From: an uncultured Phycisphaeraceae bacterium
GTDB taxonomy: Bacteria; Planctomycetota; Phycisphaerae; UBA1845
DNA length: 64,000 bases
Assembly: GCA_964526695.1 (NCBI GenBank)
Contig: CAZGJA010000042.1
Location: 21,145-85,144, forward strand
Reading direction: 5' to 3'
Part shown: piece after piece, positions 25,757 through 44,322 of the stretch
How positions within the stretch are numbered: position 1 is the stretch's first letter
Layout: every line of letters begins with the position of its first letter
Translations under genes and position numbers: made by a program
The notes under the pieces: model-generated
What the model was told of the DNA's origin: nothing
Database searches by the model: none
The model's input: only the letters and a program-made list of their open reading frames with translations

Positions 25757-25799
25757 ACATGCCCATGTATCTCGAAGGCGTTTGCGTGAGGTGGTGTGG

Positions 25800-27200: not shown

Positions 27201-28595
27201 ATGAACTCGATAAGACAATCGACCGCCCTGGCGACGGCGATGAGCCGGATGCCGGGCGGCTATCGTCGCATGGACGTGAATCATCTTTTGGCCGTCTGGC
27301 ACGCCTACCGCACGGAAAAGCGCATTCGTTTCGTGGACTTCCGCGTCTACCTGGCGCTGCACGAGATGGCCGAGCGGCGTCGAGCCGGACGCCGCAGCAA
27401 AGCGCGTCGACGGAAATCGACGCTTCCACCAAAGCGGAACCTGAGCGGAATCGTGTTGGAATGTGCCCGATTGCTGCGGGTGCGAGACTCCCGCGTCGCG
27501 TCCGGCGCCATACAGCGGCTGGCGCGTGCGGGGTTGATTTCGATTTCAGAGCATTCGATTCGACTCAAGGGGCAAGGACCCGCATCGCTAGAGCAAGACT
27601 CAAGGACCGGTTTGGCCGGTCGGAATGTGTCGCGCCGGACGATGGCAGTTCCGCGCCGAGTGCTTCGGCATCTGGCTGGCGGAGAGACCGTCAGTCGCAC
27701 CGCGACCATGCTGGGACACTTGCTACGCTGCGTATTCCATCATCGCGGTTCAGGCTGGAACTCGGTGGGGTCGTGCTCGATTCGGTTTGTGGCCGAACTG
27801 TTCGGCGTGGACGCCCGAAGCGTCAAACGCGCGCGTCGGAGGCTGGTGGACGAGGGTTGGCTGAAGCCGGAGTCGGCGGACCATTGGCACGTGCAGGCGC
27901 AGGGCGCTCGGGTGAAGGTCAACCTATCCTGGTTCCCCGGTCCGCAGGAACCACTTCTAGACGTCAACGCGGCCGGAATGTCACCCCGGCCACCCGGTTT
28001 CGCGTGCCCGTTGTCACCCCCAGGATCAAAACGCACGCTTCCCCTGGTACTTCAGAACCACACACCCGCGTTTCCGCGGGGTGTTGGTGTTTGGACCGAT
28101 GGGCCGGCTGAGGATCCACCGCGATTGGCGGATGTCCGTCTCTGCGACCTTGTGGAAGCGGATCGCCTGCAACTGCTCTGCCAGGAAGCGTGCGCGCGCG
28201 GCTGGATTCGGTCCAGCGAGCACGACACGTTGCGCGTGTTCTCCGCCGCTGCACACGCTCGAAGGGTCGGGCGCACCAACCCGTGTGGCTTGTTCGTAGT
28301 AGTCCTGCGGCGCGGGTTGTGGATGTACCTGAGCAACGATGACGATGACACCGGGCGGGCTCTGTTCCGATCGCTGAAAGACCCACGCCTGGTCGGTCCT
28401 GCGAATCGTCCGCGGGGTGCCGCACACTCGCGCGAACTCGGTCGCGAACCTGAGGAAATCCGCGGGGTAAACAACCTTGCGGCGTCCCTCGCGAGGGCAT
28501 TCACAATGCCGGGAAGCACTGCACGACGAACCGAAAGGGGAGCGCGACCTGTGTTCGCCGTAGCTCGGCTCCGTCGCGAATTGGCTTCGCGATGA
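27201..28595 (+). CDS. Putative replication initiator (two wHTH-like regions)
   Basis: DFRVYLALHEM; SIRFVAELFGVDARSVKRARRRLVDEGWL HTH; divergent from parA. The ORF is well supported; its function is inferred. Confidence 0.5.
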   Translation: MNSIRQSTALATAMSRMPGGYRRMDVNHLLAVWHAYRTEKRIRFVDFRVYLALHEMAERRRAGRRSKARRRKSTLPPKRNLSGIVLECARLLRVRDSRVASGAIQRLARAGLISISEHSIRLKGQGPASLEQDSRTGLAGRNVSRRTMAVPRRVLRHLAGGETVSRTATMLGHLLRCVFHHRGSGWNSVGSCSIRFVAELFGVDARSVKRARRRLVDEGWLKPESADHWHVQAQGARVKVNLSWFPGPQEPLLDVNAAGMSPRPPGFACPLSPPGSKRTLPLVLQNHTPAFPRGVGVWTDGPAEDPPRLADVRLCDLVEADRLQLLCQEACARGWIRSSEHDTLRVFSAAAHARRVGRTNPCGLFVVVLRRGLWMYLSNDDDDTGRALFRSLKDPRLVGPANRPRGAAHSRELGREPEEIRGVNNLAASLARAFTMPGSTARRTERGARPVFAVARLRRELASR

Positions 28596-28635
28596 AGCCG
28601 CGGCCGCGCTTGCGCTTCCGCATCGTTGATGGTAT

Positions 28636-28676
28636 AAAAAAAGGCCCCTTGGGGGGCTAATGAGACCTCCCAAGGG
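28636..28676 (-). terminator. Intrinsic terminator of unit 1
   Basis: Minus strand: CCCTTGGGAGG..CCCCCCAAGGGG-CC-T7. Confidence 0.8.
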
Positions 28677-28698
28677 AACCTGCGTTTGCGAGTTCGAG

Positions 28699-28881
28699 TT
28701 ACAGTCCACCTGTTCTGATTCGCTCTAAGAGCACCAGACCCACGGCGAACCCGATCCCGATCAGAAACGCGGAGAACCAAAACAGCACGAACACGTGTGT
28801 GATTCTCCAAATGATCAGGTTCAGCACTGACTTCACCACCGATTTCTCGTTCCTCTGCATACGCTTTCTGTCTCTTTTCAT
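28699..28881 (-). CDS. 60-aa single-TM glycine-zipper peptide A
   Basis: GAGAGG RBS; basic N-terminus, F39-G42-G44-G48-L51 helix; ungapped homologue of 29256-29438. Confidence 0.7.
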   Translation of the reverse strand: MKRDRKRMQRNEKSVVKSVLNLIIWRITHVFVLFWFSAFLIGIGFAVGLVLLERIRTGGL

Positions 28882-29043
28882 ACGTCCTCTCTCAAGGTTT
28901 TTTCAGTTAATAAGAAAACCAGAAAAACCGTTCATCAACCTTCGCAGATGAGCTGCGTGAGCAGCCCATCGGCCAAGTGGTAAACAGAGAGGTCAGACAT
29001 CGACGTCGTCAGAAGAGGCAAAGTCCCTTGCTGGTTGCGCAAA

Positions 29044-29122
29044 CGCGCCGGTCGAATGTTTGAGAGCCCGGACCGGTAAGGGGCTCATGCAAACCCACGA
29101 AGGGGTTGCGCCGTGACGCGAC
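29044..29122 (-). ncRNA. Structured leader element copy 1 (hairpin, H-type pseudoknot)
   Basis: Sense: GCAACCCC-UUCG-UGGGUUUGC then GAGCCC/GGGCUC crossed by CCGGUC/GACCGG; 73 of 75 nt identical to copy 2. Confidence 0.7.
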
Positions 29123-29202
29123 GGACGGCTCGTATTTGGCCTGGCCGCCGCGAAATCTCGCCGAGAAGCAACGCTGCAGGCTGCGATGCCTCGTGTTTCC
29201 GC

Positions 29203-29240
29203 AAAAGTGCCCTTGGGGGGCTAATGGGACCCCCCAAGGG
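29203..29240 (-). terminator. Intrinsic terminator of unit 2
   Basis: Minus strand: CCCTTGGGGGG-TCCCATTAG-CCCCCCAAGGG-CAC-T4; homologous to the unit 1 terminator. Confidence 0.7.
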
Positions 29241-29255
29241 AATTGCGTTGTCGGT

Positions 29256-29438
29256 CTACATGCAACCGTTCCAGATGGTTACTGCGAGCAGTATCCCTGT
29301 CGTAAGTCCAAGACCCGCTGTGAAGCCGGCAGCGAAAATCTTGAAGAAATTCCTGACGGCTTCCTCCACGGCGAATTGCACTTCGAGAGGCACCCGATCT
29401 GTAGTCAAACGCTTCATGTCATCCATTATGTTTCTCAT
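29256..29438 (-). CDS. 60-aa single-TM glycine-zipper peptide B
   Basis: GGAG RBS before ATG 29438 gives exactly 60 aa; M8,R10,V16,F31,F39,G42,G44,G48,L51,I55,G58 identical to peptide A. Confidence 0.7.
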   Translation of the reverse strand: MRNIMDDMKRLTTDRVPLEVQFAVEEAVRNFFKIFAAGFTAGLGLTTGILLAVTIWNGCM

Positions 29439-29593
29439 AATACGCTCCATTTGTTTCAAGTTAATAAACAACCATCAACCGCTCATCCACCTCACAGATA
29501 GGCTGCAAAATGCAGCCCATCGGCCAAGCGATGAACATGGAGCACAGACAGTGGCGTGAACGATGGTCAGGTGACCTCATGGTGCAGACCGCA

Positions 29594-29723
29594 ACGCCCG
29601 GTCGAATGTTTGAGAGCCCGGACCGGTGAGGGGCTCATGCAAACCCACGAAGGGGTTGCTCCGTGACGCGACTCGGAGGCCGGCTTCCGCCGCCCGGTCG
29701 CGGTATTTCGTTGACAAAGAGCA
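29594..29723 (-). ncRNA. Structured leader element copy 2 with upstream boxA-like site
   Basis: Same motif 550 nt from copy 1; TGCTCTTTGTCAAC at 29723-29710. Confidence 0.7.
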
Positions 29724-30371
29724 TGCCGGCCGGCAGCGGTCCCACGGACGGCCCACGGCCCGGCCCTCCATTGTATGCACGCCTGATGGGCAAGGGTACG
29801 CCACCGGGGCGGCGTGGCCGTCGTTTTTGGCGATCGCTGGCCGGGAATCCGTCTGAGCCGCCCGCCAAGGTCTGAATCCGGGCGCGACGGTGGACGCCAA
29901 CGGAATCCTCCGGAAAGCCGCTTTGCACCGCCCCGCGGCTCCGGCTATCTCCCGGTCGTGCGAAAAAACCGCCTGGGGCCAATACGGCAATCTGGGTAGC
30001 TTTGGGTGAATGGTCACGAGTTAAGTGCGGAAGACTTTCCCTGTCCGGGCCGTCGCCCTTCCCCGCGAGCCCGGCCCGGAAGCCGGGTGCCGCCGGGCCT
30101 GGGAGCGATGCAGTCCCGTCCAATCGCGGGATTTGCCGTTGCCGTAGCGAACCCTCGGCTCGCCCGTGAAGCCGTAAGTGCCTTGCGGCAAAAGAGGTTC
30201 GGGATTCGGCCTGCGGCTCGGGACCCTGTCGGCCGTCGCTGGCCCGGAGACGAGCGAAGCGAGCCGGCGGCGGTCGATAGGGTGAGGCGCGGGCACCCCG
30301 CCTGCGGAGGGGCTCCCGGAGGCCCGAGCGTGCAGGCTTCTTGCTTCCGAGGTGCCGAGGTGGACGTCCAG

Positions 30372-31771
30372 CTACGTGTCGTCTGGGGCGTTCGTGGGGC
30401 GTTTCTGAGGCGTTTGAGGCGTTTGTGAGGCGTTTAGCACGTAGTGCGTGGCCCGGCCGGTCCGACCCCGCCGGCGGAGCAGTTGGCGGGAGACGAGTTC
30501 GTCCAGGCAACGTGACGCCGTCTGCCGGGACACGCCGAGCAATTGCTGAACCTGCTGGTTGGTCACGCGCGGCTGTTGCTTGGCGAGCAGAACGACGCGA
30601 ACCCGGTCGTCGGTAAGCCCCATCGCGCGTAGTTGCTCGGGCGTGAACCGATCCTTGGCGAAGACGACCTGGAAGCCGCCCGATTCCTCGGCGAAGCGTG
30701 GTTCCGGGAGGCCCTGCTCGCGACACAGCTCGCGCATCCGCGTCGTGCCCGTGCCCCAGCCTAAATAAGCTCAGCAAAGAAGAACATGCGGGCCAGCAGC
30801 GGATTCCGCGGCTGAGAGGAGTGCCGCTCCTTCAACAGGTCTGCCAACGTAATTCCTTCGGGAAGGGGGCCGGGGTTCCAGAAATCGACGCGGTCTTCTT
30901 CGACGCGGATCTGGATGTCGCCCAAGGCCGTGTAATCCCGATGGATGAGTGCGTTGATCGTGGCCTCACGCAGGGCATCGAGCGGGTACTCCCAGGTCTC
31001 GCGGCGTTGAATACCCTCGACGGTCATTGCGGTGGACTTGACTTCGGAGCGCAGCGCGAGGTAGCTGCGGAAGGCCTCCAGCACGCCATCGAGCTGCTGC
31101 CAGAGGTTGCCGGTGATCAGCCGGTCGTCCAGCGTGACTCCGTTCTTGAAGTGACCGATGTGGACCTGACCCGACGTGGCGACATGCTCCGGGTGCTTTC
31201 CGAACAACATCACCGCGGCCTTCGTGACTACGCCGTCGCGAAGCAGCCGAAGGTTTGTGAGTGCCTCCCGTGGATCATCGCTTTCGCTGAGCTTGGGGAG
31301 GCGTTTGGCGGCCAAACGGACGAACCGGCGAAACGCGTCGAGGTCGAGCGAACTGAAAGGAAGATCGGTGGGCAGCGCGTCCCACGTTTCGCCCAGTTTC
31401 GACATGAGCCGACGGCCGACCTGGTCCGGCGTCATGTCGCGGTTCGTGCTGCCGACGCGGGTCAGGTACCGGCCGCGGTACGCGGTCGGGACAGTAGTCG
31501 GCTCGACGCATAAGCACAGGACGGGCTTGCGGCCACGCAGCTCGATGCGGATGGCTGGTCGCAGGCCGAGCGCTTGAACGACCTGGTTGGCAATGCGCTG
31601 CTGCTCGGCGTCGTTGCCCGACCAGCCTACGACCTGCGCGTCATCGTTGACTCCGACATGTACCGTGCCGCCCTTGTGGTTCGCGAAGGCGGCGAGCGTT
31701 TCCAGCGCGGAGTCAGTCCAGCGCTCCTTGAACTCGACCGTTTCGCCTTCCTTCGGTTTCAAGCGGGCCAT
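30372..31771 (-). pseudogene. Disrupted Schlafen/AlbA_2-RecG_C-wHTH ATP-binding protein
   Basis: EGETVEFKE..AFAN.KGG, EATINALIHRDY, RNPLLA; reads ATT TAG GC TGG GGC ACG (expected I-E-A-W-G-T-G): stop at 30761-63 plus 1-nt frameshift. Confidence 0.8.
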
Positions 31772-31894: not shown

Positions 31895-32362
31895 TCAAAT
31901 CCCGATCAGAACGGCCAGAATAGCGAACGCAAGGAAAACCATGTTCGCACCTGCGATGCGGCGAGGGGGAATGTCTCGCGCAATCAGCACACCGTTGATG
32001 ACCAGGAACGCGACTGCAACCAGGTGCCACACCTGCCAAGTTCCAAAAGGTGGAAGTGGCCGGCACAATGACGCCTCGAGACCCCACCAAGACATGTCAA
32101 TCGAGTCGAGGGCTGCGGCGGCGGACGAGGACGCAAAGTAAGACAGAAAGCCGAGCACGACGAACGCGATTCCGACAGCAGCGAGCGAAAGGCGTCGTCG
32201 AAGTAGGCCCCACAGCATACCGAACAGTCCGACGAGCAGGAGCCCGGAGCGCGCCAGCGCGATGTACTCCTGCTGGTTGGCGGCGGCGACCGCCAGCCAG
32301 AGCGCGATCGGCGCGACGAGAATGGCTGCGAGAAAGATGAGAACGCGGGTCACGTTGTTCAT
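31895..32362 (-). CDS. Multi-pass membrane protein
   Basis: About 5 hydrophobic segments; ATGA overlap with the AAA gene. Confidence 0.75.
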   Translation of the reverse strand: MNNVTRVLIFLAAILVAPIALWLAVAAANQQEYIALARSGLLLVGLFGMLWGLLRRRLSLAAVGIAFVVLGFLSYFASSSAAAALDSIDMSWWGLEASLCRPLPPFGTWQVWHLVAVAFLVINGVLIARDIPPRRIAGANMVFLAFAILAVLIGI

Positions 32363-33756
32363 TGGATCCCTCCCGGAGCGGTCGAGGGGTTCACCCCGGC
32401 GCGCGCGTTAGCATGGGGGAGTTCGATCGGGACGCAGGTGAGCGGCGGACCGGCACAAACGCGTACAGGGCTTCCGGATGCACCTGCCTCGACGAGGGCA
32501 TTACCGAGAATCGCATCGATGGCGTATTCGTACGGCCGGGCACCGAAGACCTGACTCCTGGTGTGCTCCAGGATGCGAACAATCACGGCCGGTTCGATGT
32601 ACGCAACGTTGACCCCGTACTCCTGGGCAACCGCATGAACGGCAGACGCTGCGATTTCAGTCAAGGCGTTGGTGGAGAGCGGCCTAAATACGAAGAAGCG
32701 GTTGATTCGCCCGACGAGTTCTGGCGCGATGCCAGCGGCCCGGACGTGGCTACGGCAAACCTCATCTGTACGGACACTGTCATCGAAGGACTCGGTTCGA
32801 GCAAGTTCAGCGACGATGCCGTCTGAGTCCAAGTTGGCTGTGAAGATGAAGATAGCGCGCCGGCAATCGACTTCGCGCGTGCCGGTCGCAGTGCGCGACG
32901 GACTGGAGAGTCGGCCGGCGTCCATCGCGTTCATCAGGGTCTGAAGGATGGTGGGATGCGCTTTCTCTATTTCATCGAAGAGGACGACGCGCCGGGGATT
33001 GACTGCGAGGTCGTCAACTAGTTGCGCGCCTTCGCCGTGGCCGACATATCCCTGCGGAGCCCCAAGGAGCTGACTCCGGCGATGGGACTCGCCGTATTCT
33101 GACATGTCCAACCGGGTATACGAGTAGCCGATTTTCCGGGGATCAAGAGTCTGAATGACCTTGGACACGAGCGCGGCCGTACGAGTCTTTCCGACGCCTG
33201 TTGGCCCTGCGAACCAGCACGTGCATGGCCGGCGCGGGTCGATGCGGGCGACGTGGCGGCATACCTGTTCGGCCAACGGGCGCAGCACGTGGTCCTGACC
33301 GAATACATGGCGGCGGAGCTCTTCCGCGAAGCGGCTGGAGTCGACATGCGGGGCACTGTGAGTTCCTGCCTGGACAGCCTGTAACTGTTGGATCGTCGAC
33401 AGATCCGTTAGCTGCGCGACTGCCGGCGCGGAGGAATCCGGTTGACCGGCGTCAGCCGGGTAGACAGGCGCAAGGTCCGAAACGATCCACTCACGCAGGG
33501 CATGGAAATGTGGAAAACGCTTCTCTCCTCTGCTCAACCATCGCCGCAACTCGCGGTTCTGTCCCGTGTAGCGCACGCCGGTCTGGACGTAAAGGATCGC
33601 CGCCCGCGATCCGGCGTCTACCTCGAACCCGACGTGCGCATGGGACGGCTGGCATCCTGGGGGCATGCACTGGTCTCGAAATCGAATACAATGCGCAGAA
33701 GCCCTCCGCTCCAGTTGAGCCCACGCGTCGTCGCTGCCGTGGATGAATTGGTGCAT
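32359..33756 (-). CDS. ClpB/ClpA D2-type single-ring AAA+ ATPase with unknown N-domain
   Basis: GPTGVGKT, LDMSEY, pore loop GYVG, VVLFDEIEKAHP, PELVGRI, GARP; GAGGAG RBS. Confidence 0.92.
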   Translation of the reverse strand: MHQFIHGSDDAWAQLERRASAHCIRFRDQCMPPGCQPSHAHVGFEVDAGSRAAILYVQTGVRYTGQNRELRRWLSRGEKRFPHFHALREWIVSDLAPVYPADAGQPDSSAPAVAQLTDLSTIQQLQAVQAGTHSAPHVDSSRFAEELRRHVFGQDHVLRPLAEQVCRHVARIDPRRPCTCWFAGPTGVGKTRTAALVSKVIQTLDPRKIGYSYTRLDMSEYGESHRRSQLLGAPQGYVGHGEGAQLVDDLAVNPRRVVLFDEIEKAHPTILQTLMNAMDAGRLSSPSRTATGTREVDCRRAIFIFTANLDSDGIVAELARTESFDDSVRTDEVCRSHVRAAGIAPELVGRINRFFVFRPLSTNALTEIAASAVHAVAQEYGVNVAYIEPAVIVRILEHTRSQVFGARPYEYAIDAILGNALVEAGASGSPVRVCAGPPLTCVPIELPHANARAGVNPSTAPGGIQ

Positions 33757-33770
33757 GTCAAACTCCTCAA

Positions 33771-35471
33771 TCAGGGCCTGGGCGAGGGACGCATCAGACG
33801 CGTATCTGCAAACGTGCCAGCAGCATTACGAAGGTCACCAGTACCAGAGCAGTCCGGGCACACCGGCCGGGTAGGTGATTGCCCAGCATCCGGCGCCTGT
33901 GCCAGGAACAGAGTATCCAGCATGACGAAGCTGCCTGCGTCGGCGGCGCCCGCGATCCGCCTTCCAAATGTGTTGCCGAATGTAACGTCGAAGTTCGGAT
34001 CCATTCTGATACGCAACAGGTTGCGTGAACCGAGCATGGTCACCATGTTTCCCCAGCGTGGGTGGTCCGTGCTGTGGTGCGTGACGGCAAGCAGAACATG
34101 GCCGAGAATCGCGTTGAGCATTTCCGCGGCGAAGATGGGTGCGCCAGTTGAGCTTACCGTGTTGCGATAACCGTTCTCGTACGCCGCGTAGCGCGACGAT
34201 GTGATGCAGCGATGGCACGCAGGTGACACGCCCGGGATCGTGTACGTGACTTCCGCTCCGCGCCCTTCTACGTACTCTTGGGCACAGATGGTCGGCAGCC
34301 CGAAGTGCAGACCCAGCCGGTGCCCACGGGCGTTTGCCTCGAAGTTGTCAGTCAGGACCAGTAGAATCCACAATCGCGGAAGGCTTACCGCCCCCGTCGA
34401 CTCCGCCCGCATTGGCTGGCGGAGTAGGACTTCAAACGTCTCGTCGTCAATTGCTTCGATAGGTTCGGAGACAGCCAGCGCTGCCGATGCGGGATTGAGA
34501 CGTACCACATCCGCGGCCAGCGCCTCCGCCTTGGGCTTCCCGATAGCTTCGGGTTCGGCCTGCTGAGAAAAGATGTTGGCCGCAGTAACTTCGTCGGGAT
34601 CGACGAGCACTACCTCGCCATACCCCATCCGTGCGCAGTTGCGAACGAGCGAGGCTGCGCCGCCCACCCCGATCACGATGAGCCGGGTGGCGTCCAAGAG
34701 CTCCAGGTCGCAAGCAGAACCGAGCCGAGTAAGGTACTGGTCCCTCTTGGCCACGGCGTTGGCCTGGGCGGCGATCTCGTCGGTGGTAGCGGGCTGCGTA
34801 GTCACGCATTTCGGCCCAGCGCTGAGTCGCGCCCCGGGTTCCAGGGAGGCGAAGTTCCCATAGTACTTATGGCGAAGCGTCGGACGCAGTTCTCCGGGGC
34901 TTTCTTTGAGGCGTGGGAGAGTTGGAGCGGGGCTCTTCATCTCGGACGCCACGATAATGGGCTGCCGTGCGGACCCATCCGGCCCGCCATCGACAACGCG
35001 CAGCCGTCCTTTGACGATGTTGCAGCGTGAGCGATCCGTCGGGCTTGGGACCGCTGCGTACGTCAGGACCTGGAAGGCGCCGCTGTCGACCGTCGTCATA
35101 ACGATCGGGAGCCACAGCAGCTCAAGTTTCTTGAAGCACCTGAGTATCTGACCGGCATACCACTCGTCGTATCCCGACGGGCGCCGGACGCCGGCCGGAT
35201 GGCTATGCGCAAAGCCGCAGAACTCGATCCCGCTGACCTTCCATTCCTTGATGACGCGATTGAGCGACCCAATGTCCGGATCATACGCGGCGGCGCTGCA
35301 CCGGCCGTTCTTATCCGCCTCGAAGCTGCAAATGTAGCCATCCGGTCCGCGTCCGAGCATGCCGCCACGTTCTGCGCGGTGCTGGCCGATGAAGGCGCGG
35401 ATCTGTCCGAGCACGTTTTTTGACATCCGTAGGGTTGGGGCCGTTGTCGCATTGTTCTGATTTGTCACCAC
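33771..35471 (-). CDS. JAB/MPN+ isopeptidase fused to ThiF/E1-like adenylation domain
   Basis: ERGGMLG plus exact JAMM H-x-H-x7-S-x2-D (HSHPAGVRRPSGYD); VIGVGG, VDPDEV, GKPKA, TDN, Zn motifs CHRC and CPDC; AGGAGG RBS, GTG start. Confidence 0.9.
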   Translation of the reverse strand: MVTNQNNATTAPTLRMSKNVLGQIRAFIGQHRAERGGMLGRGPDGYICSFEADKNGRCSAAAYDPDIGSLNRVIKEWKVSGIEFCGFAHSHPAGVRRPSGYDEWYAGQILRCFKKLELLWLPIVMTTVDSGAFQVLTYAAVPSPTDRSRCNIVKGRLRVVDGGPDGSARQPIIVASEMKSPAPTLPRLKESPGELRPTLRHKYYGNFASLEPGARLSAGPKCVTTQPATTDEIAAQANAVAKRDQYLTRLGSACDLELLDATRLIVIGVGGAASLVRNCARMGYGEVVLVDPDEVTAANIFSQQAEPEAIGKPKAEALAADVVRLNPASAALAVSEPIEAIDDETFEVLLRQPMRAESTGAVSLPRLWILLVLTDNFEANARGHRLGLHFGLPTICAQEYVEGRGAEVTYTIPGVSPACHRCITSSRYAAYENGYRNTVSSTGAPIFAAEMLNAILGHVLLAVTHHSTDHPRWGNMVTMLGSRNLLRIRMDPNFDVTFGNTFGRRIAGAADAGSFVMLDTLFLAQAPDAGQSPTRPVCPDCSGTGDLRNAAGTFADTRLMRPSPRP

Positions 35472-35483
35472 AATCCTCCTCGG

Positions 35484-35786
35484 CTACCAAGAGCCGGTCT
35501 TGATGTACTTGACGGTATGCCGGGACCACGACTCCGCGATGGTTCGAGCCTCTCGCAGGGTTCTGGGCGGCGGTTCGTAGCAGATATGCGGTCTGCCAAA
35601 ACACCCCAGCCCGTATCGATGCGTGGAGTGGCCATCCGTCGCTCGGCCGGCCGGATATGAAGGCTGTTTATCGATGTATATCCGGATCGTTCCGTCGGTC
35701 TGCTCCACGAGCGAGAAGTGGAACGACGTGGTCGGGCTCGCGTACACGTCGTACCAAAAGCTGTCGATCTTCCTCCGATCTGCCAT
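35484..35786 (-). CDS. E2/UBC-like protein (divergent)
   Basis: Beta-rich FHFSLVEQTDGTIRIYIDKQPSYP, then STHR...GRPHIC and an LxEAxxIAxxW helix, resembling the E2 P-x-x-P/H...IC layout; AGGAGG RBS. Confidence 0.6.
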   Translation of the reverse strand: MADRRKIDSFWYDVYASPTTSFHFSLVEQTDGTIRIYIDKQPSYPAGRATDGHSTHRYGLGCFGRPHICYEPPPRTLREARTIAESWSRHTVKYIKTGSW

Positions 35787-35813
35787 GGTCATCCTCCTGT
35801 TCCGATGAGAGGC

Positions 35814-35852
35814 ACAAAGGCCCCCGGCGGCGCGGGCGGCGCCGTCGGGGGC
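35814..35852 (-). terminator. GC hairpin/attenuator between repeat peptide and E2-like gene
   Basis: Sense GCCCCCGACGGCGC-CGCCC-GCGCCGCCGGGGGC then CTTTGT (weak U-tract). Confidence 0.55.
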
Positions 35853-35863
35853 TGAAGTTGGGA

Positions 35864-36016
35864 CTAGCGGAAGCCGCCTGGCGGCAGCTCCTCATCGCCC
35901 CGGAATCCACCGGCCGGGAGTTCCTCGTCCCCGCGGAATCCGCCGGGCGGGAGCTCCTCGTCCCCACGGAACCCTCCGACGGGGAGCGATGCTTCGAAAT
36001 CGTAGATCGCCTTCAC
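35864..36016 (-). CDS. 50-aa tandem-repeat peptide MKAIYDFEASLPVGGFR(GDEELP[P/A]GGFR)x3
   Basis: Hand-translated, absent from the ORF track; GGAGGT RBS plus GTG; 33-bp repeats differ mainly at synonymous sites. Confidence 0.85.
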   Translation of the reverse strand: MKAIYDFEASLPVGGFRGDEELPPGGFRGDEELPAGGFRGDEELPPGGFR

Positions 36017-36096
36017 GATCCACCTCCAATCTCAAACTGTTGGAAGACCCGTGCTTCACTCGGAGCCGAAGCACCTGGCTCACCATCGGGACGCAT
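36013..36096 (-). CDS. 27-aa upstream peptide MRPDGEPGASAPSEARVFQQFEIGGGS
   Basis: GGAGGT RBS plus ATG 36096; TGA overlaps the GTG of the repeat peptide (GTGA coupling). Confidence 0.45.
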   Translation of the reverse strand: MRPDGEPGASAPSEARVFQQFEIGGGS

Positions 36097-36163
36097 GGTA
36101 ACCTCCGCTCCCATCATGTACAAGGCTCTCTACCGTACCAGTAGAAAATAGCGACAACAAATC

Positions 36164-37729
36164 GTGGCGCGTTGTAAAGCACGGCTGCGGGCTATGGACA
36201 ACATCTCAGGCTCCCCTAGAATAATGGGCATGAGCAGCACCAAGAGGGCGCGGAGCGTCGACAGCGGCAGGACGAAACGCCTGCAGAGTGGCGTTTCAGA
36301 ACCCGCCGCCGAACGTCGAGCCGGCGAGCGACCGCAGGGGAGACCTGCCCCCCCCCAGGAAGTCCCGCCCCAGAAGCCAAGCATGCCCAATGGAGGGGAA
36401 AGAGAGGAAGGGCAAGCTCTGGACGGCGGTCATCGGGGGCGACCAAGGCGGGATTCACCGGATCGTGAATCCTGGAAGAAGCTTCTCGCTACGCTTCTAA
36501 AGCAGGCCGACAACCCGCCCAGAAGCAAGGATCTTGCGGACACCGTGAAGAAATACCTAGGGAAACGCCGAGACAACCGAACGGTTTCGTCTGCGCTGAT
36601 CGACAAATGGAGATCCGTGGGTCCAAGCAATCCTCAAGCGCCGACGGATTCGGTGATGGCGAATGCGCTTCTCGACGCACTCGAGGAAAGGCTCGTTATC
36701 CGGCCGCGAAAGCCTGGGAATCAGCCTGACAAGCTATACGACGGGCTAGTGGACGAACTGCCCGGCCAAGAGTGGGACCCCGAATCCATTCGATGCAGGC
36801 TAATACAATGGTTATTCAAAGATGCAGTGCGCGATTCGGATCCCGAAGCGAAGCTCTATCGGTTTTCCTACCTTGCGGCACATGAGCTGTTCGAGGAACT
36901 CTGGCAGTATGTGTCCCCGGATGCGACGTGGGACGATTCCGATACGGCGTTTGTGGGGGCCTGCCTAATGTCGAATCGCAAACAGAGCGAAGACGTCTGG
37001 CAACTGATCGAAACAAGCAGCGGAACGTTCCAAGTACGCGAAGAAAGCGACTGTAGCATCGTTCATGTCCGGCATATCGTGATGTTCCTCTATTGGGACG
37101 GCCGTGACCGTGAGGAGGCCCAAGAGGCTTGCAAGAAACTAAAGGATGAAATCCAAGCTAAGAAATCAATGGAATTCATCACGGATCGTGCAAATGAGGG
37201 TTTGGCCACGCACGTTGTCCTCGGTGTATATCGGGGCAACGACCGCGAGAATGGACAAGAGTGTATGCGGGAGTTGCAGGATATTGCAAGGGGACTTTTT
37301 GAGGCTTGCAATAGCAATGGTCGAAAGCACTGCTTCGTCTGGCGGAAGGATTTGGAGAACGAAGCTGCAGCGCCGTACCCCATGAGCGATTTCTGGCTTC
37401 TCCTCTTTCCCGACGGCGACAGCAAGCTATGGAGGTCGATGCGGCACCCGGAACAGTTCAAGCGCATTCGGTACAGTCGAGCTACCCGCCTCTGCGCGCC
37501 TATCGGCGGATATGAGAAGCAAGCTGTTTGCTCGTGGATGGGCATTAAGGGGAGCAAGAGCGTGGCCACAGGGGATTACCTATGGCGAGTGTTGCCGGGT
37601 GCGCGCATATCGATGGATCGTTCATCTGGCACGGAACACGCCGACGCTCGTCAGGCAATAACTTCCACTCGGTCAAGTGCCTCCGTCGGACGCCCGTCGA
37701 AAGCTAAGGGGCGCGGTAAGCATGTGTGA
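36164..37729 (+). CDS. Divergent putative regulator (XRE-like HTH plus large unknown C-terminal region); start uncertain
   Basis: Long ORF; VSSALIDKWRSVGPSNPQAP resembles an XRE recognition helix; stop overlaps the ABC ATPase start. Confidence 0.55.
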   Translation: MARCKARLRAMDNISGSPRIMGMSSTKRARSVDSGRTKRLQSGVSEPAAERRAGERPQGRPAPPQEVPPQKPSMPNGGEREEGQALDGGHRGRPRRDSPDRESWKKLLATLLKQADNPPRSKDLADTVKKYLGKRRDNRTVSSALIDKWRSVGPSNPQAPTDSVMANALLDALEERLVIRPRKPGNQPDKLYDGLVDELPGQEWDPESIRCRLIQWLFKDAVRDSDPEAKLYRFSYLAAHELFEELWQYVSPDATWDDSDTAFVGACLMSNRKQSEDVWQLIETSSGTFQVREESDCSIVHVRHIVMFLYWDGRDREEAQEACKKLKDEIQAKKSMEFITDRANEGLATHVVLGVYRGNDRENGQECMRELQDIARGLFEACNSNGRKHCFVWRKDLENEAAAPYPMSDFWLLLFPDGDSKLWRSMRHPEQFKRIRYSRATRLCAPIGGYEKQAVCSWMGIKGSKSVATGDYLWRVLPGARISMDRSSGTEHADARQAITSTRSSASVGRPSKAKGRGKHV

Positions 37730-38564
37730 TGCGCTGTGCGTGGATAAACTGTCCGTCGAATATGCCACTCCAGTGGTGCCCTTACGAGCCCTGTCGGAGG
37801 TAACGTTTGCTGTGCCTCCGGGGCCTGCAGGTTCCTCGGTTTGCTGTTTGGGAGCATCGGGTGCCGGCAAAAGCACGCTCGGGCTCGCTGTTATCCAACT
37901 TCTGCCGCATGAAGCACGAGTCAAAGGCAAGGTATCCTTGCCAGGAGGCCTGACGCTCACCGCGAGCGGTGGTCGGCTGCGGGAATACCGGCGGCGCAGC
38001 GTCGGCGTCGTGCTCCAGGATGCGCCAGGTTCTTTGGTTCCCGGCGTTCCAATTGGACGGCAGGCTCGGCGCGTTTTCGCCGTGAGGCGGGGTCTTGCCC
38101 GAAGAGATGCCGAGCGAAGCGCGCGGGAAGGGCTGGCCCGGGTGGGCCTCGAAGACGTTGAGCGCGTTTGGCGGGCGATGCCATCGGAGCTCTCGGGCGG
38201 CATGTGTCAACGGGTGATGATAAGCCTTTCAGTATTGGCTGCTCCTGAGCCTCGGCTCATGATATGTGACGAGCCCACGAGTGCCCTCGATAGCGTGTCG
38301 GCTGCGCAGGTGCTTGAGTTGCTTTTTCGCATCAAGGCTGAACACCGAATCACGATGTTGTTCATTACGCACGATGTCCGTCTGGTTTGGCGCTTTGATT
38401 GGGTGGCGATTCTCTCAGAAGGCCGGCTCGCGGAGTTTGAAAGGAGTGACCAGTTCTTAGCAAGCCCGCGGAGCGAGGAAGGACGTCGGCTGCTCGATGC
38501 TGGTAAGGCCCTCGGTAGCAGTTCGGTCGATCGTGTAAATGCTCAACAGGAGATAATGCGGTGA
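37722..38564 (+). CDS. Dpp/Opp-type ABC ATPase
   Basis: GASGAGKS, LSGGMCQRV, MICDEPTSALD, FITHD. Confidence 0.93.
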   Translation: MCDALCVDKLSVEYATPVVPLRALSEVTFAVPPGPAGSSVCCLGASGAGKSTLGLAVIQLLPHEARVKGKVSLPGGLTLTASGGRLREYRRRSVGVVLQDAPGSLVPGVPIGRQARRVFAVRRGLARRDAERSAREGLARVGLEDVERVWRAMPSELSGGMCQRVMISLSVLAAPEPRLMICDEPTSALDSVSAAQVLELLFRIKAEHRITMLFITHDVRLVWRFDWVAILSEGRLAEFERSDQFLASPRSEEGRRLLDAGKALGSSSVDRVNAQQEIMR

Positions 38565-39658
38565 ACTTAATGGCTGGGTCTTTGGGAGGGGCGATACCGA
38601 CACTCCGGACGGACGGCCCTTCCGTGATATCCATTTGCGTCAATGCAGTGTGCCCCTTGAAGTGTCGGCATTGCTATTTGGCCGGGGGCGAACCCGCGAT
38701 CGGTGTCGGGGCCGCGCAGTGGCTTCGATTCTTGCGGTCCGTCTTCATCGATCTGCGGCCCCACTCCTTGTGTTTTAGCGGAAAAGAGGTCTTCGCCCTC
38801 GATGAGAGTGCGTCGCTCTTCTTCGACGCACTGCGCCTCCGGGACGAGGAGCAAGCCGGTAGCGTTCAGCGAACACGTATCGGCGTCATCACGAATGGGA
38901 CCCTGCTCGATCGGTACCGCGATCAGCTCGTTGAGTGCCCGCCGGATTGGCTCGACGTGAGCATCGACGGGTTGGAAGGCGCACACGATGAAGTGCGCGG
39001 GAAGGGCTCCTTCGCCCGCGTTGCCCGAAACCTGCCGTGGCTCGTCGAGTCGTTCGGCGCTCGGCTCTGGGTCGCAGTGACATTGATGGAGAGTAACGTC
39101 GAGACGCTCCGGGAGTTCATTTCAGGCCTCCACCACACGTCCGGTCTAAACCGGTTCACCGTGGGAATCTACAAGCCGCAGAGTTACACGGATTCAACGC
39201 TGCGGCTTGCGGAGCCCAGCCGGGAGGGACGGATTCTGCGCTCAGTCTACGCCCTCGAACAGATACAGGACGCGGATGGCGTTGTAGTGCGCATCGAACT
39301 CGACGTCGGCGATGCTGGCCTTCGATTGAGACTCCAAGACTCGGGCATGATCCCCACCGTTGGGGCGATCCGCGTCGCGGAACATTCCCTGAAGAATGGA
39401 CTAACGCTCCAACTCGCGGCCGCGACAACCCCCGTGGGACTTTGGCGAGCTGTTCGCGTGACGAACGAAGGTCTTTATCTGGCAGCAGAGGATCTCGTCG
39501 ATGTGACCGCATATCGAGAGCGCGCCATCGGGAATATCGCGGAGTTCGAGTACGACGCGAAGCGAGTCTACGAGGCCGGACTCGTGCATCCGCGCTTCCG
39601 CGAACTGGTCGGGACAGAGGCGCCTGAATTCCTGGCGCGGCTTGCCCGGTCGGCATAG
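38561..39658 (+). CDS. Radical SAM enzyme
   Basis: CPLKCRHC (CxxxCxxC), FSGKE, ITNGTLL, VSIDG..HD.VRG; C-terminal SPASM-like region without Cys. Confidence 0.9.
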   Translation: MNLMAGSLGGAIPTLRTDGPSVISICVNAVCPLKCRHCYLAGGEPAIGVGAAQWLRFLRSVFIDLRPHSLCFSGKEVFALDESASLFFDALRLRDEEQAGSVQRTRIGVITNGTLLDRYRDQLVECPPDWLDVSIDGLEGAHDEVRGKGSFARVARNLPWLVESFGARLWVAVTLMESNVETLREFISGLHHTSGLNRFTVGIYKPQSYTDSTLRLAEPSREGRILRSVYALEQIQDADGVVVRIELDVGDAGLRLRLQDSGMIPTVGAIRVAEHSLKNGLTLQLAAATTPVGLWRAVRVTNEGLYLAAEDLVDVTAYRERAIGNIAEFEYDAKRVYEAGLVHPRFRELVGTEAPEFLARLARSA

Positions 39659-39681
39659 GGGCGGTCCCTGGAGCTACCCAA

Positions 39682-41292
39682 ATGAGGCGAACAACCATCA
39701 CGATCGCGGCTGTGTTTGGAGCCCTCGGGCTCGCGGCACTTATGTTCTGGGCATACCGTGGTCAGGAGCCTACACACGTTCGCGCGGTGACAATTCCGCT
39801 GGAAGGCGACATCCAGACGCTGGACCCAGCCGCGCTTTCCGATCCGACGACAAGCCGCGTTGTTTGGCAGATATATGAAGGGCTCGTTGGGCTCGACGCG
39901 GAAAACAACGCGGTGCCGATGATTGCGGAGTCATGGGATGCTCGCGACGACTCACGCACGTGGGTATTCAGGATTCGGCAAGGTGTCTTGTTTCATCCGC
40001 ACGCAGCCTTTTCCGGGGAATCGCATAGACGAGCGGTCCGTGCTGACGATGTCGTCTGGTCGATCGAGAGAATGGCGCGTGGTTTTGGATCGTTCGTGTT
40101 TGGCGGTCTTGTCGAAGGCTTCGACGTGTACGTCAAGGGCGAAGGAAAGAGCATTACCGGTTTACGAGCCACGGGCGAGCACGAGGTCACGTTCATTCTC
40201 AATCGGCCCGACCCGTCTTTCTTGTACCGTATCACCAGCCCCTACCTGTCCGTCATGCCGCGCGAGGTGGTCGAAGGAGACGCGGATGCGTTTGGAAGGA
40301 CGGTAGCAATCGGAACGGGAGCATTTCGGTTGGTTCGGGCCGGGAGCGGTGAATTGGTTTTGGAACGATACGCAGAATACTGGGGCAGGCGAAGCGGCAA
40401 CATCGATAGCGTGACGTTCCGAGTTGAGAAGAATCCGCAGTTCCGAATGGCTGGCTTGCGATCCGGCACGTACGACCTAGTTCGTATGCCGACGGAGCTG
40501 CGCGGAGAGTTTCTTCTTCGAGACGGCAGCTTCAAACCCGAGTCTGCTGCTAGATTCCAAACGTTCGAATCGTCAACATTCAACGTGCATCTGCTGGCCG
40601 TAGATGCCAAACAGGTAACTGATGCCGCGTTGCGGCGGGCCATATCTCTGGCGGTTGACCGTGACGTTATCGTCACCGAAGTGCTGAGTGGCGGCGCTGT
40701 GCCGGCCAACGGGCCAGTTCCGCCAGGAATGCAGGGTTATCGCTCGCCGCTCCGGGTCGCTAGAGACCGAGAGGCGGCTCGACGCGAGGTCGCGGCCAGC
40801 TCCTATGCGGGGCAGGAGCTGACGCTGTTGGTGGCCAGCGTTCACAATCACCCTGACATTGTGCAGGTTGTACAAGACGAACTACTCCAGTGTGGCATCA
40901 AGACGCGCATCGAGCAGGTCGAGTTCAACGCATTCGTTAGCCGACTATTCGGCACTAATCGGCCGGCACTATTTTTGACTTATAGCGAATGGATTTATTC
41001 GGCGCCGGAGCTATTGATGGAACAGTTTCGGTCCACGGCTACGCCGAATCCGAACGTATTCGGTTATGCGGACGACCGTGTTGACGCTCTAATCGCTCAA
41101 CTTGGCGCGACCACGGAGCGGTCTGAACTGAATCGGCTGTGCGCTGATATCGAAAGGATTGTGGCAGAAGCACCACCGGCCGCATGGCTCTACCACGAGC
41201 GGCATATGTTCCTGGCAGCTAAACGACTCTCACACTTCGCTGTGACGGGCAACAATCATTGGCTCCTTTCGGAGCTGCGGAGTGAGCCGTAA
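39682..41292 (+). CDS. Family-5 peptide/nickel ABC substrate-binding protein
   Basis: N-terminal anchor, TLDPA, IYEGLV, GTGAFRL, LRRAISLAVDR. Confidence 0.93.
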   Translation: MRRTTITIAAVFGALGLAALMFWAYRGQEPTHVRAVTIPLEGDIQTLDPAALSDPTTSRVVWQIYEGLVGLDAENNAVPMIAESWDARDDSRTWVFRIRQGVLFHPHAAFSGESHRRAVRADDVVWSIERMARGFGSFVFGGLVEGFDVYVKGEGKSITGLRATGEHEVTFILNRPDPSFLYRITSPYLSVMPREVVEGDADAFGRTVAIGTGAFRLVRAGSGELVLERYAEYWGRRSGNIDSVTFRVEKNPQFRMAGLRSGTYDLVRMPTELRGEFLLRDGSFKPESAARFQTFESSTFNVHLLAVDAKQVTDAALRRAISLAVDRDVIVTEVLSGGAVPANGPVPPGMQGYRSPLRVARDREAARREVAASSYAGQELTLLVASVHNHPDIVQVVQDELLQCGIKTRIEQVEFNAFVSRLFGTNRPALFLTYSEWIYSAPELLMEQFRSTATPNPNVFGYADDRVDALIAQLGATTERSELNRLCADIERIVAEAPPAAWLYHERHMFLAAKRLSHFAVTGNNHWLLSELRSEP

Positions 41293-42257
41293 TGTCGAGA
41301 GGCTCGTTGGCCTATCGCGGTAGCCGTCACATCGGCGGTTGGAGCATCGCCTCTGTGCTACGAGTCGTGGCAACGGGCATAGGGCTGTTTCTATTCGTAT
41401 CGACGGTCGCATTCATTGTATTCTCTGTCTTGCCGACTGATCCGGTGCGCAATGCACTTGGAATGAACGCTAGCGAGGAGGCGGTTCAGTCGCTTCGCCA
41501 GCAGCTTGGATACGATCGGCCGATGGCCAAGCGATACGTGCGCTTCCTGGTTGGCTCGCTCCAGTTGGATTTCGGCCGCTCGATCCATTCTCGCCGTCCA
41601 GTGGGCGCAATGATTGTCGAAGGGTTAGCAACGACAGGTCGCAATGGAGCTATTGGGCTGTGTCTCGCTGCGTTCTTGAGTTTGATGTTGGTCGTCGTTG
41701 CGTGGTCGTGGAGGAGGATTGAACACGCTTTGGTTCTCTTGTGTCGGTTGCTAACGAGCATCCCTAGCCTCATTCTGGCGGTCACGGCCGGCGTTGTGGC
41801 CTATAGCATGCTTGGCGGCTTCGGAACAGGTGGTTATCGCGAGGTCGTCGGCGTTGTTACTGCCTTGGCGGTGTACCCGACTTGCTCACTGGCAGAGATT
41901 GCGATCGGTGAATCCCGGAGGGCGGAGCGGTGTAGCTTTGTAACGGCCGCGCGCAGCTTCGGCATGAGCGAACGGGCGGTGTTCGCTCGGTGCGTTCTTC
42001 CTGCCATACTGACTAGCTGGGCAGGGCACGTGTCCAATCTGGCAGCGTCGATTTTCGTTTCCTCCGCGGTCGTCGATGCGGTTTTCTCTTTACCGGGAAT
42101 TGGTCATTTACTCGTTCAGGCAGTTATCCATAACGATCTTCCGGTCGTGCAGGGGGTGATCGTCGTCGTAATCGCGGGCTTCCTAGGCGTTGATCTCTTG
42201 TTCGATCGTTTAGTCCTGCCGCGGTTGGCCGTGCATGTGGGGAGTACCCGATCGTGA
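41292..42257 (+). CDS. DppB-like ABC permease
   Basis: PTDPV, LGYDRP, DFGRS, TAARSFGMSE, VFSLPGIG. Confidence 0.92.
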   Translation: MSRGSLAYRGSRHIGGWSIASVLRVVATGIGLFLFVSTVAFIVFSVLPTDPVRNALGMNASEEAVQSLRQQLGYDRPMAKRYVRFLVGSLQLDFGRSIHSRRPVGAMIVEGLATTGRNGAIGLCLAAFLSLMLVVVAWSWRRIEHALVLLCRLLTSIPSLILAVTAGVVAYSMLGGFGTGGYREVVGVVTALAVYPTCSLAEIAIGESRRAERCSFVTAARSFGMSERAVFARCVLPAILTSWAGHVSNLAASIFVSSAVVDAVFSLPGIGHLLVQAVIHNDLPVVQGVIVVVIAGFLGVDLLFDRLVLPRLAVHVGSTRS

Positions 42258-43054
42258 AGACCTCCCGCCTGGCAGCCATAGCGGTGGTCGCGCTGCTTTC
42301 CGGACTCGGATGGGTCCTTAGCGCCAATGATACGCCGGATCTGGAGCGAAGGCTCTCGCCCCCATCATTTCAGAACTGGGCGGGAACGGATCATCTCGGC
42401 CGGGACATACTGGGCCGTACAGTTCGAGCAGCCGCAACCGCCGCGACCGTCGCACTTCCTGCTTGGATAATCGCGACGTTCTTCGGAACAGTCCTCGGTC
42501 TTATTGCCGCAAGCACGCGTGTGCGGGTGGTGAGCATAACGATCGACTGGGCGATCAAAGTGGTCTTCGCAACTCCCTCGTTTCTCTTGCTTGTCGGCTT
42601 AGGAGCGGTGCTGGGTCGAGGCATGGGCGCCATATTCGTTGTCGTGCTGCTGGTCGGCTGGGCATTTCCTGCTCGACATGCACGGGCTCTGGCGCAAGAT
42701 GTACTCGGCGCTCCCTTTACGAGGGCTGCACTGTCGATGGGCTTTTCGTCCATTGATGTCGCCCGCTATGTACTTGCGCCCGCGTGTGTTCGACCTGTCG
42801 TCGCAGCGAGCGGGGGACTTATCGTGGAGGTCCTTGCGCTCGACTTGGCATTGACCCTCTTCGGCTTTGGTCCGCCCCCGCCATCTCCGACATTCGGTAC
42901 GTTGCTGAGCGACGGGCTTCGGTTTTACAGCACAGCGCCGTGGACCGTCCTGGTGCCGCTCGGTATCATTTGTGTCATGTGCTTGTGCTTTCGTTCGGTG
43001 ATCGGTGGTGCCGGCGCGGCATTGCCGATCTTGACTACGCAACGTCGGCGATGA
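42254..43054 (+). CDS. DppC-like ABC permease
   Basis: GTDHLGRDILGR, AALSMG, PTFGTLL, APW. Confidence 0.92.
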   Translation: MKTSRLAAIAVVALLSGLGWVLSANDTPDLERRLSPPSFQNWAGTDHLGRDILGRTVRAAATAATVALPAWIIATFFGTVLGLIAASTRVRVVSITIDWAIKVVFATPSFLLLVGLGAVLGRGMGAIFVVVLLVGWAFPARHARALAQDVLGAPFTRAALSMGFSSIDVARYVLAPACVRPVVAASGGLIVEVLALDLALTLFGFGPPPPSPTFGTLLSDGLRFYSTAPWTVLVPLGIICVMCLCFRSVIGGAGAALPILTTQRRR

Positions 43055-43069: not shown

Positions 43070-43302
43070 AAGTAACCCAGCCTAAGTCGAGGTCGATAGT
43101 GGCGATATGCTCTTCAATCCCAGGGGGACGGCCACTCTGATCGACGATTAGACGATTAGCGACGGAACCAACCCTCGGACCACGCACATTTCCGCACGAA
43201 AATCACCCAGCCGCGTTGCGACTTCAAGGCACGTCCGCCGAATGAGCGTGTTGCAGCCGGGCACGAGCCGGCGGCAACTCGTGGCTCCCGGTTCACCGCC
43301 AT
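43070..43302 (-). pseudogene. Decayed nucleotidyltransferase toxin (AbiEii-like) N-terminus
   Basis: Three frames read MAVNREPRVAAG / RRTCLEVATRLGDFRAEMCVVRGLVPSLIV / DQSGRPPGIEEHIATIDLDLG; 8-bp duplication GACGATTA at 43143-58. Confidence 0.7.
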
Positions 43303-44318: not shown

Positions 44319-44322
44319 GCTT

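Follow-up and report, generated by a model that had tools for sequence, protein, structure and literature searches.

The window, the whole stretch of 64,000 nucleotides analysed here from an uncultured Phycisphaeraceae bacterium, carries on its minus strand a short gene for a repeat peptide (35864..36016; 50 codons, GTG start) that heads a four-gene cassette. Reading of the sequence places a Shine-Dalgarno element, GGAGG (36023..36027, minus strand), 6 nt 5' of the GTG codon, and the arrangement GGAGGTGA..GTG upstream of the frame is common to the window and to its closest relative, locus L076. The translated peptide is MKAIYDFEASLPV-GGFRGDEELPP-GGFRGDEELPA-GGFRGDEELPP-GGFR, and its parts follow one another on the same strand: a 13-residue leader that ends in LPV and precedes the first GGFR, three full 11-residue units of the form GGFRGDEELPx (35945..35977, 35912..35944 and 35879..35911), a terminal GGFR (35867..35878) and the stop codon (35864..35866). 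Tandem Repeats Finder described the underlying DNA as a repeat of period 33 with 3.6 copies and 79% matches. No tRNA genes were found in the window.

When the 33-nt units are aligned codon by codon, nine nucleotide columns vary, eight of them at third positions and one, responsible for the P/A difference, at a first position; the hypergeometric probability that at least eight of nine variable columns fall on third positions is 9.6e-5. A preliminary description of this DNA had stated that the units differ mostly at third positions, that GGFR occurs four times and GDEELP three times, and that the sole residue variation is the series V/P/A/P before GG. The counts and the series are exact, and all factual statements of that description were correct. 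Its proposal that the peptide is under selection and that the open reading frame is real now finds strong support in homologues and in a conserved gene order.

A protein search with the window 50-mer recovered 25 metagenomic peptides of 30-80 aa, and scanning reference genomes and metagenomes with degenerate DNA patterns supplied further ones, bringing the homologous peptides to 39 distinct sequences. They have a common layout of a leader, [DE][DE]E-LPxGGFR-type units and a short tail. Leaders are unrelated or fast-evolving and extend over 13-54 residues N-terminal to the first GG, while the units follow the consensus [G][DE][DE][ESQ]-[LI]-P-x-G-G-F-R and are present in 1-5 copies, mostly 2-4. 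The tail after the last GGFR is absent in two peptides and is a single residue (always G, S, A or T) in 18; in the others it has up to 24 residues. Among the 112 units defined by GGFR, the proline at -2 and the leucine or isoleucine at -3 are invariant and position -1 is free; LPxGG precedes FR in all 112, so that GG is followed by extra residues throughout, and position +1 after GGFR is small, usually G, S, A or T. Lysine is nearly absent from the units, and poly-tag chains linked through lysine are therefore not expected. Two loci from the genome pattern scan, L004 and L005, were set aside as chance finds at single-match loci, and two from the viral-contig scan, L014 and L015, yielded unrelated matches only. 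No copy of the peptide gene or the cassette was found on IMG/VR viral contigs, and phage carriage is without evidence. Pfam, NCBIfam, PADLOC and PHROGs hold no family for the peptide or for two of its cassette partners described below, the small Cys/His protein and the N-domain.

The residues beyond the final Gly-Gly deserve separate mention. It had been suggested that the terminal FR caps the last GG, as in precursors of ubiquitin-like proteins (Ubls). FR does follow the last GG, but the notion of a cap is too simple, since FR is kept at that place in 36 of the 39 peptides (the other three have GSFR or GGLR). By its conservation, FR with the next small residue looks like a part of a recognition motif and not like a disposable cap.

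Codon usage in the wider family repeats the pattern of the window. In the pooled data of 17 homologous loci, 25 columns vary at codon position 1, 16 at position 2 and 115 at position 3, a third-position excess (115/156) with a binomial p of 7.5e-25; the unit alignment that had been proposed as a check thus shows the synonymous pattern recurring independently in 17 loci. In L001, a Pontiellaceae locus, the units encode the same amino acids although 9 of their 11 codons differ. These data bear directly on the possibility that the frame is untranslated, the 33-bp repeat being a regulatory or recombinational DNA or RNA element, or that the opposite strand does the coding. The frame is indeed short and starts with GTG, and the surrounding DNA is GC-rich, a condition under which long spurious open reading frames are frequent; a 164-aa frame on the plus strand (35657..36151) overlaps it. 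However, the third-position excess fits this frame only, and when the units of the window are read in the five alternative frames their amino acids change from unit to unit. Furthermore, the frame, its Shine-Dalgarno start and a stop codon close behind the last unit persist across phyla while the DNA diverges. A check for loci that keep the DNA repeat without the frame returned none, the frame being open in every homologous locus. We regard the untranslated alternative as effectively refuted. The 50-codon frame is a real gene whose peptide is under purifying selection, because homologues keep the frame and the gene order is conserved.

The number of units is far less constant than their sequence. 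The closest relative, L076, encodes a 39-aa peptide consisting of MKTMCDLEASLPR and three GGFR motifs, against four in the window; it also ends directly at GGFR, and the small protein of its cassette is 89% identical to that of the window. Comparison of the two leaders, MKAIYDFEASLPV in the window and MKTMCDLEASLPR in L076, illustrates how fast leaders diverge while units stay fixed, the enzymes of the two loci being 89% identical. Within one lineage with identical enzymes, the peptide has two, at least three or at least four units depending on the sample (L010/L011, L051 and L002/L012/L047, respectively), and the DNA of these units is identical, which indicates recent expansion. The comparison of repeat number that had been recommended therefore gives a range of one to five units with variation between close relatives, and this variability suggests that unit number is a matter of dosage and not of architecture.

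The spacer between the peptide gene and the gene for the small protein holds a strong GC-rich hairpin, GCCCCCG-ACGGCGCC...GGCGCCG-CCGGGGGC (35820..35852, minus strand). In the window it folds at -35.8 kcal/mol, with a z-score of -1.4 that is not significant in so GC-rich a sequence. In 12 of 12 loci that were folded, this spacer likewise forms a strong, perfect hairpin, 10-21 bp long and of unrelated sequence, and inspection shows one in L076 as well. The element is a candidate attenuator or mRNA-stabilising structure, and its conservation suggests that the peptide is produced in excess over the enzymes encoded downstream.

The next gene of the cassette encodes a small Cys/His protein (35484..35792, minus strand), 102 aa as listed and about 95 aa in the family; translation probably begins at the second ATG, at 35786. 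T57-H58-R59, C71 and P76 are conserved, an exhaustive profile search retrieved 733 representative clusters, and loci contain one to three copies. An AF2 model (pLDDT 82) has the topology βββ-loop-β-α, which is not a β-grasp. We consider the protein a candidate carrier or E2 analogue, the label 'E2-like' deriving only from the H...C motif, the position in the operon and the fusions described below. Foldseek comparison of the models of the small protein and of the N-domain with the PDB gave no match, every E-value exceeding 0.3; PDB profile searches with the two were empty, and hhalign detected no signal between either of them and human UBE2D2 or between the two themselves. No likeness to E2/UBC, RWD or β-grasp folds was thus detected for either by Foldseek, PDB profile or hhalign. 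The alternative that the small protein is itself the modifier, given a conserved TG 2-4 residues before its C-terminus, is less likely, because in the AF2 model this glycine caps a long helix and is not carried on an extended tail.

Two genes downstream of the peptide gene lies a fusion of a JAB/JAMM peptidase with an E1/ThiF adenylation domain (33771..35471, minus strand; 566 aa), in which Pfam recognises Prok-JAB at aa 31-109 and ThiF at aa 256-458. The peptidase part spans about aa 20-140 and contains E34, H89-S-H91, S99 and D102; the adenylation part spans about aa 245-560 and contains GxGG (268-271), D291, D375, C419xxC422 and C538xxC541. The JAMM motif E...HxHx7Sx2D is invariant in ten homologues, as are the GxGG, DPD (DxD) and TDN motifs and the two CxxC pairs of the E1 part, and the fusion is kept in nine further loci. 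Judged from sequence, the catalytic motifs of both domains are intact. The crossover loop of the E1, which follows CHRC, is without a conserved cysteine and has R427, Y428, Y431 and S441 invariant, so that a classical thioester relay from the E1 is unlikely. The closest PDB profile matches of the domain are MoeB and UBA5, at about 1e-5, and by sequence it is not closely related to a solved structure.

The last conserved gene of the cassette (32359..33756, minus strand; 465 aa) couples a novel N-domain to an AAA+ module. The module, residues 140-465, resembles the D2 module of ClpB/ClpA and has a GYVG pore loop. The N-domain extends from aa 1 to about 100 (about nt 33457..33756) with M1, Q3, F4, G7 and C23 invariant, and an AF2 model based on only three sequences (pLDDT 74.5) has the topology α-βββ-α-β-α, again not a β-grasp. 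A 155-aa open reading frame with 4-5 predicted transmembrane segments (31895..32362, minus strand) overlaps the AAA+ stop codon. Small, non-homologous transmembrane proteins follow the AAA+ gene in L002/L010, L006 and the window, and not in L001 and L013; membership of this frame in the cassette is uncertain. Genes 3' of the AAA+ gene are not conserved.

The order of peptide gene, hairpin, small Cys/His protein, JAB–E1 fusion and N-domain–AAA+ protein is kept wherever enough DNA is available, that is, in the window and in L001, L002/L012, L006, L010/11, L013, L020, L025, L031, L047, L060, L072 and L076. Variants show which parts are separable. In L008/L009, JAB and E1 are encoded apart, and a protein of 124 aa consists of the N-domain alone, without the AAA+ module; in L040, the N-domain is joined to PIN and protein-kinase domains and the small-protein domain to the N-terminus of JAB–E1. 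Its occurrence alone in the first case and with other outputs in the second marks the N-domain as a core component. Three related loci with E1, JAB and the small protein, L073, L074 and L075, contain no recognisable GGFR peptide, and the enzymes can presumably work on another substrate.

The named hosts of homologous loci are Pontiellaceae, a Lentisphaerae MAG and a Deltaproteobacteria MAG. Outside the window, the products of neighbouring genes include AbiEi/AbiEii, ParE, OLD-TOPRIM with UvrD, a CD-NTase and a Lit-type peptidase U49, as well as integrases and a serine recombinase. In the window they include Schlafen/AlbA_2, AbiEi, a phage-type integrase, ParA and a DNA methylase. The cassette rides in islands of defence genes and mobile elements.

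Multiple GG motifs with extra residues, encoded directly 5' of a JAMM–E1 fusion, lead us to read the peptide, by analogy, as a polyubiquitin-like pro-peptide that would serve Ubl-type tagging or signalling with a short-peptide modifier, and we hold this reading with middling confidence. From the gene context we infer the cleavage and its site, the adenylation, the transfer and the role of the AAA+ protein. The peptide would be made in excess, the hairpin after its stop codon attenuating read-through or stabilising a short mRNA. The JAB/JAMM domain would cut after every LPxGG, with FR[G/S/A/T] as the P1'-P3' recognition residues, and would set free FRG[DE][DE]ELPxGG 11-mers together with the leader, which would end in LPxGG; all these products would expose Gly-Gly at the C-terminus. 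The leader fragment expected from the window peptide would be MKAIYDFEASLPVGG, with a mass of 1596.786 Da. The E1 domain would then adenylate the exposed C-terminal glycine, a step for which the action of ThiF-like enzymes on short peptides is a precedent (PMC12596934). The activated peptide would move to Cys71 of the small protein, acting as E2 analogue, and/or to the N-domain, at Cys23 or at its N-terminus, and from that nucleophile to target proteins. The N-domain would link the tag to an output, the ClpB-like unfoldase here and the PIN and kinase domains in one variant.

Such a pathway would yield an 11-residue peptide, or the leader with LPxGG at its end, and not a β-grasp Ubl. The analogy with Ubl precursors that require proteolytic maturation, drawn in the preliminary description, holds in part: the JAB–E1 context fits it, but the product would not be a β-grasp Ubl and the cleavage is putative. 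Only tentatively do we extend the proposal to a β-grasp-free system in which the 11-mer would be joined covalently to invader or self proteins and the ClpB-like AAA+ protein would recognise and unfold them by way of the N-domain, a scheme about which we remain doubtful. If true, it would be a third independent logic of unfoldase tagging beside ubiquitin and Pup, placed in bacterial immunity. As a separate observation, the tails of 0-24 residues after the last GGFR count against a tagging role.

The conservation at the end of the peptide can also be read in another way. Since FR and the small residue are conserved in the last unit too, a binding motif explains this no less well than a cleavage site. 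The peptide might accordingly stay uncut, its LPxGGFR repeats forming a multivalent ligand (an inhibitor, antitoxin or adaptor) for the small protein or for the N-domains of a hexameric AAA+ protein, or a bait for an invader protease that would expose GG ends and thereby switch the system on. Retention of FR and a small residue past the final GG agrees with this, one to five units (mostly two to four) resemble the valency of a partner, the small protein is present in one to three copies per locus, and tripwire or decoy logic, which is known in immunity, offers a parallel for the bait. However, the intact JAMM site fused to E1, which every locus conserves, needs a substrate, and JAB/E1 substrates canonically carry extra residues beyond GG (PMC10557695, PMC11601596). 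Moreover, unit number is free among near-identical systems, which is easier to understand as dosage than as a scaffold of fixed stoichiometry. We think it quite improbable that the peptide acts uncut.

A different chemistry is offered by ribosomally synthesised peptides (RiPPs). The peptide might be the precursor of a RiPP-like small molecule whose units are excised by JAB and adenylated at glycine by the ThiF-like domain, followed, for example, by head-to-tail cyclisation of the 11-mer or by a nucleotide addition of the microcin C kind; the resulting compound would either be toxic or act as a second messenger, with the effector's N-domain as its sensor. Precursors with several cores and variable leaders are typical of RiPPs, and the E1 domain, devoid of a conserved crossover-loop cysteine, is in this respect like the adenylation-only enzymes MccB and ThiF. 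A hairpin after the structural gene is a feature of mccA and lantibiotic operons, and the hairpin 3' of the peptide gene recalls it. The N-domain, in addition, swaps between output domains, as ligand sensors do in defence systems. ThiF-like enzymes such as MccB, EnfB and IndF adenylate the C-termini of short ribosomal peptides, and in the microcin C-type systems (MccA/MccB, EnfA/EnfB, IndA/IndF) a short peptide gene precedes the E1/ThiF-like adenylase, as it does here (PMC12596934).

Against these points, MccA ends in Asn and is unrepeated, whereas the cassette peptide ends in GGFR(x), and MccB, which has an N-terminal peptide clamp, matches the E1 of the window in the Rossmann core only (E = 3e-3). 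Microcin C-type clusters have exporters and immunity genes, and neither JAB nor the AAA+ module nor the small Cys/His protein belongs to them. The cassette itself conserves no exporter, immunity gene or further tailoring enzyme, and no conserved transporter was found across the homologous loci; an ABC importer and radical-SAM genes adjoin the locus in the window but are not conserved elsewhere. The surroundings are a defence island and not a biosynthetic cluster, and the RiPP scheme leaves two conserved proteins with invariant cysteines without a role. We therefore judge a small-molecule product unlikely and return to the tagging proposal for comparison with known conjugation systems.

Polyubiquitin genes encode head-to-tail units ending in Gly-Gly with a short C-terminal cap, in variable number and with mostly synonymous differences. 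The cassette peptide shares the tandem GG units, the short end, the variable number and the synonymous divergence. However, its unit is an unfolded peptide of 11 residues and not a 76-aa β-grasp domain, it has a leader, and its processing enzyme is a JAMM domain joined to E1. Pup and UBact are small, disordered, acidic tags with a GG-containing C-terminus, encoded beside ligation genes and, in Mpa/ARC, an AAA+ unfoldase; for Pup, the glutamine-synthetase-like PafA/Dop forms the link through a Glu side chain. A disordered tag is likewise paired with an AAA+ unfoldase in the cassette, but the chemistry is of the E1/JAB kind, the AAA+ module is ClpB-D2-like and the peptide ends in GGFR and not in GGQ/GGE. 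The cassette contains neither PafA nor Dop nor proteasome genes.

Two further comparisons concern bacterial E1 systems. In Type II CBASS, Cap2 is an E1 that acts on a flexible C-terminal tail in place of a β-grasp body, with Cap3 as JAB partner in a defence setting (PMC10557695). Cap2, however, is an E2–E1 fusion whose substrate is a CD-NTase, and the cassette lacks both a CD-NTase and an effector of this type; PADLOC E1-E2 models match the E1 of the window in the Rossmann core only (aa 228-349, E about 1e-10). In Bil (6C), a multidomain E1 of IAD-AAD-CYS architecture, a CEHH E2, a separate JAB and a β-grasp BilA are found, whereas the cassette E1 is a single adenylation domain on JAB, and searches of Pfam, NCBIfam and PADLOC matched neither CEHH nor Ubl.

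The closest known system is Type I Bub (6E.1: BubAB, BubCD, BubE). BubCD, a JAB–E1 fusion, cuts the BubAB pre-protein and exposes the C-terminal Gly of the Ubl, and Type I Bub E1 has no catalytic Cys and uses a crossover-loop Tyr instead (PMC11601596); class 6e of the 2006 catalogue likewise combines a polyUbl with a JAB–E1 fusion (PMC1779556). The cassette shares the N-terminal JAB/JAMM on an E1 domain of the homodimer type (PMC11601596, PMC1779556), the crossover loop without Cys and with conserved Tyr, and the location in mobile or defence loci. Release of a modifier Gly from a precursor by the JAB/JAMM peptidase is a further likeness, which for the cassette is only proposed. Type I Bub modifiers come either as a tandem array (polyUbl) or fused upstream of the E2; the cassette has the tandem form. 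Some rare homologues of the small protein (P0088, P0187) carry a single GGFR or GGWR fused at the N-terminus and so mirror the BubAB fusion.

Type I Bub and the cassette also differ. The repeated unit has 11 residues rich in Pro/Gly and is not a β-grasp domain, and Pfam and NCBIfam gave no match to a Ubl, ThiS or MoaD family among the cassette proteins. The partner is a Cys/His protein of about 95 aa without a detectable UBC fold and with an invariant Cys in place of Ser; Pfam, NCBIfam, PADLOC, PDB profile, hhalign and Foldseek revealed no BubAB-type Ubl–E2 in the cassette. The N-domain–ClpB-like AAA+ protein stands in place of DUF6527/BubE: Pfam recorded no match to DUF6527 (PF20137) in the open reading frames scanned from 29.6 to 39.7 kb of the window, nor does PF20137 occur in the Pfam lists of L006, L008, L010 and L076. 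Since for each family at least one defining component was sought and is missing, the cassette is not a member of the Bub, Bil, CBASS type II, Pup/UBact or microcin-C families.

In the literature readable without subscription we found no description of the motif or of the gene combination, and the cassette does not appear among the prokaryotic E1/JAB operons catalogued in 2006 (classes 4a-6e; PMC1779556). We rate the cassette as a conflict system of the E1/JAB conjugation type in which a tandem-repeat peptide replaces the Ubl, with a mechanism that is unproven. To our knowledge, characterised E1-dependent conjugation always involves a folded β-grasp modifier or, as in CBASS, the tail of a folded enzyme, and the anatomy of the cassette would surprise specialists. 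If the 11-mer fills the modifier role, it would define a minimal E1/JAB substrate. The cassette would then represent a new branch of bacterial Ubl-like immune systems with two uncharacterised families, the small Cys/His protein (about 730 representative clusters) and the effector-coupling N-domain, and the peptide might provide a very small, genetically encodable and enzymatically ligatable tag.

The expectation that gene callers would miss the peptide gene is only partly true: about 25 homologues, including that of L076, are called in public data. Defence operons can thus start with functional genes of 30-80 codons that are inconsistently annotated, and repeats within genes that carry synonymous differences only are a usable signal for such small genes.

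On the minus strand of the window, a strong perfect hairpin (35820..35852) lies 3' of the stop codon of the peptide gene. A strong perfect hairpin is also found at the equivalent spacer in 12 other loci recovered by homologue and pattern searches (L001, L006, L008, L010, L013, L019, L020, L025, L031, L040, L072, and L076, the closest relative), and across the window and these 12 loci its position is constant while its sequence differs from locus to locus. The spacer hairpin may act as an attenuator or mRNA stabiliser, setting a high ratio of peptide to enzyme.

In L002 (7770..7915), located on a contig of a Lentisphaerae metagenome-assembled genome shared with L012, the units of the peptide repeat are identical at the DNA level and the contig end falls within them. 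The repeat probably broke this assembly, and unit counts from short-read assemblies are therefore lower bounds.

L040 (1968..4091 and 4448..6337) has a variant cassette: the domain of the small Cys/His protein is fused to the N-terminus of the JAB–E1 protein (707 aa), PIN and protein-kinase domains replace AAA+ as fusion partners of the N-domain, and genes encoding VWA, PP2C phosphatase, and TPR proteins follow downstream. Three further loci, L073 (3944..7099), L075 (416..1600), and L074 (6001..7965), harbor the small Cys/His family together with either ThiF and JAB encoded as separate genes or a JAB–E1 of reduced length, and no GGFR peptide could be recognised in any of the three. In L074, the small protein's conserved part is closely preceded by a 53-aa ORF (5922..6083) with the C-terminus ...QGG, and a Dnd-type cluster comes next.

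The cassette of the window is flanked (21512..31771 and 43293..45803) by mobile-element and defence genes, including a DNA methylase (22709..23602), a ParA-like ATPase (26107..26877), a Schlafen/AlbA_2 protein (30761..31771), an AbiEi-like regulator (43293..44318), and a phage-integrase-family gene (44874..45803), and the window itself contains no tRNA genes. A divergent gene group on the plus strand (36164..37729 and 37677..43054) opens with a 521-aa protein matching no family, followed by an Opp/Nik-type ABC ATPase, a radical-SAM/SPASM-like enzyme, a family-5 solute-binding protein, and two permeases. The group could represent a peptide-uptake or peptide-modification cluster; its adjacency to the cassette is not kept in other loci.

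One candidate from the pattern scan, a protein on an IMG/VR viral contig (L015, 4172..5662), was rejected as a chance match: its repeats read PLKEGSGV, and PEGGFRG only in another frame, so the protein is unrelated to the GGFR peptide family. The searches also returned an unrelated second repeat-peptide family of about 95-125 aa, with the pattern MTIPTLKVLASLLQLHG...(F/Y)(V/I)GPYGGFRR repeated 2-3 times and a C-terminal GFGRAY (L027, 9303..9650; L028, 2057..2374; L058, 406..783; L065, 2054..2341; L070, 2688..2975).
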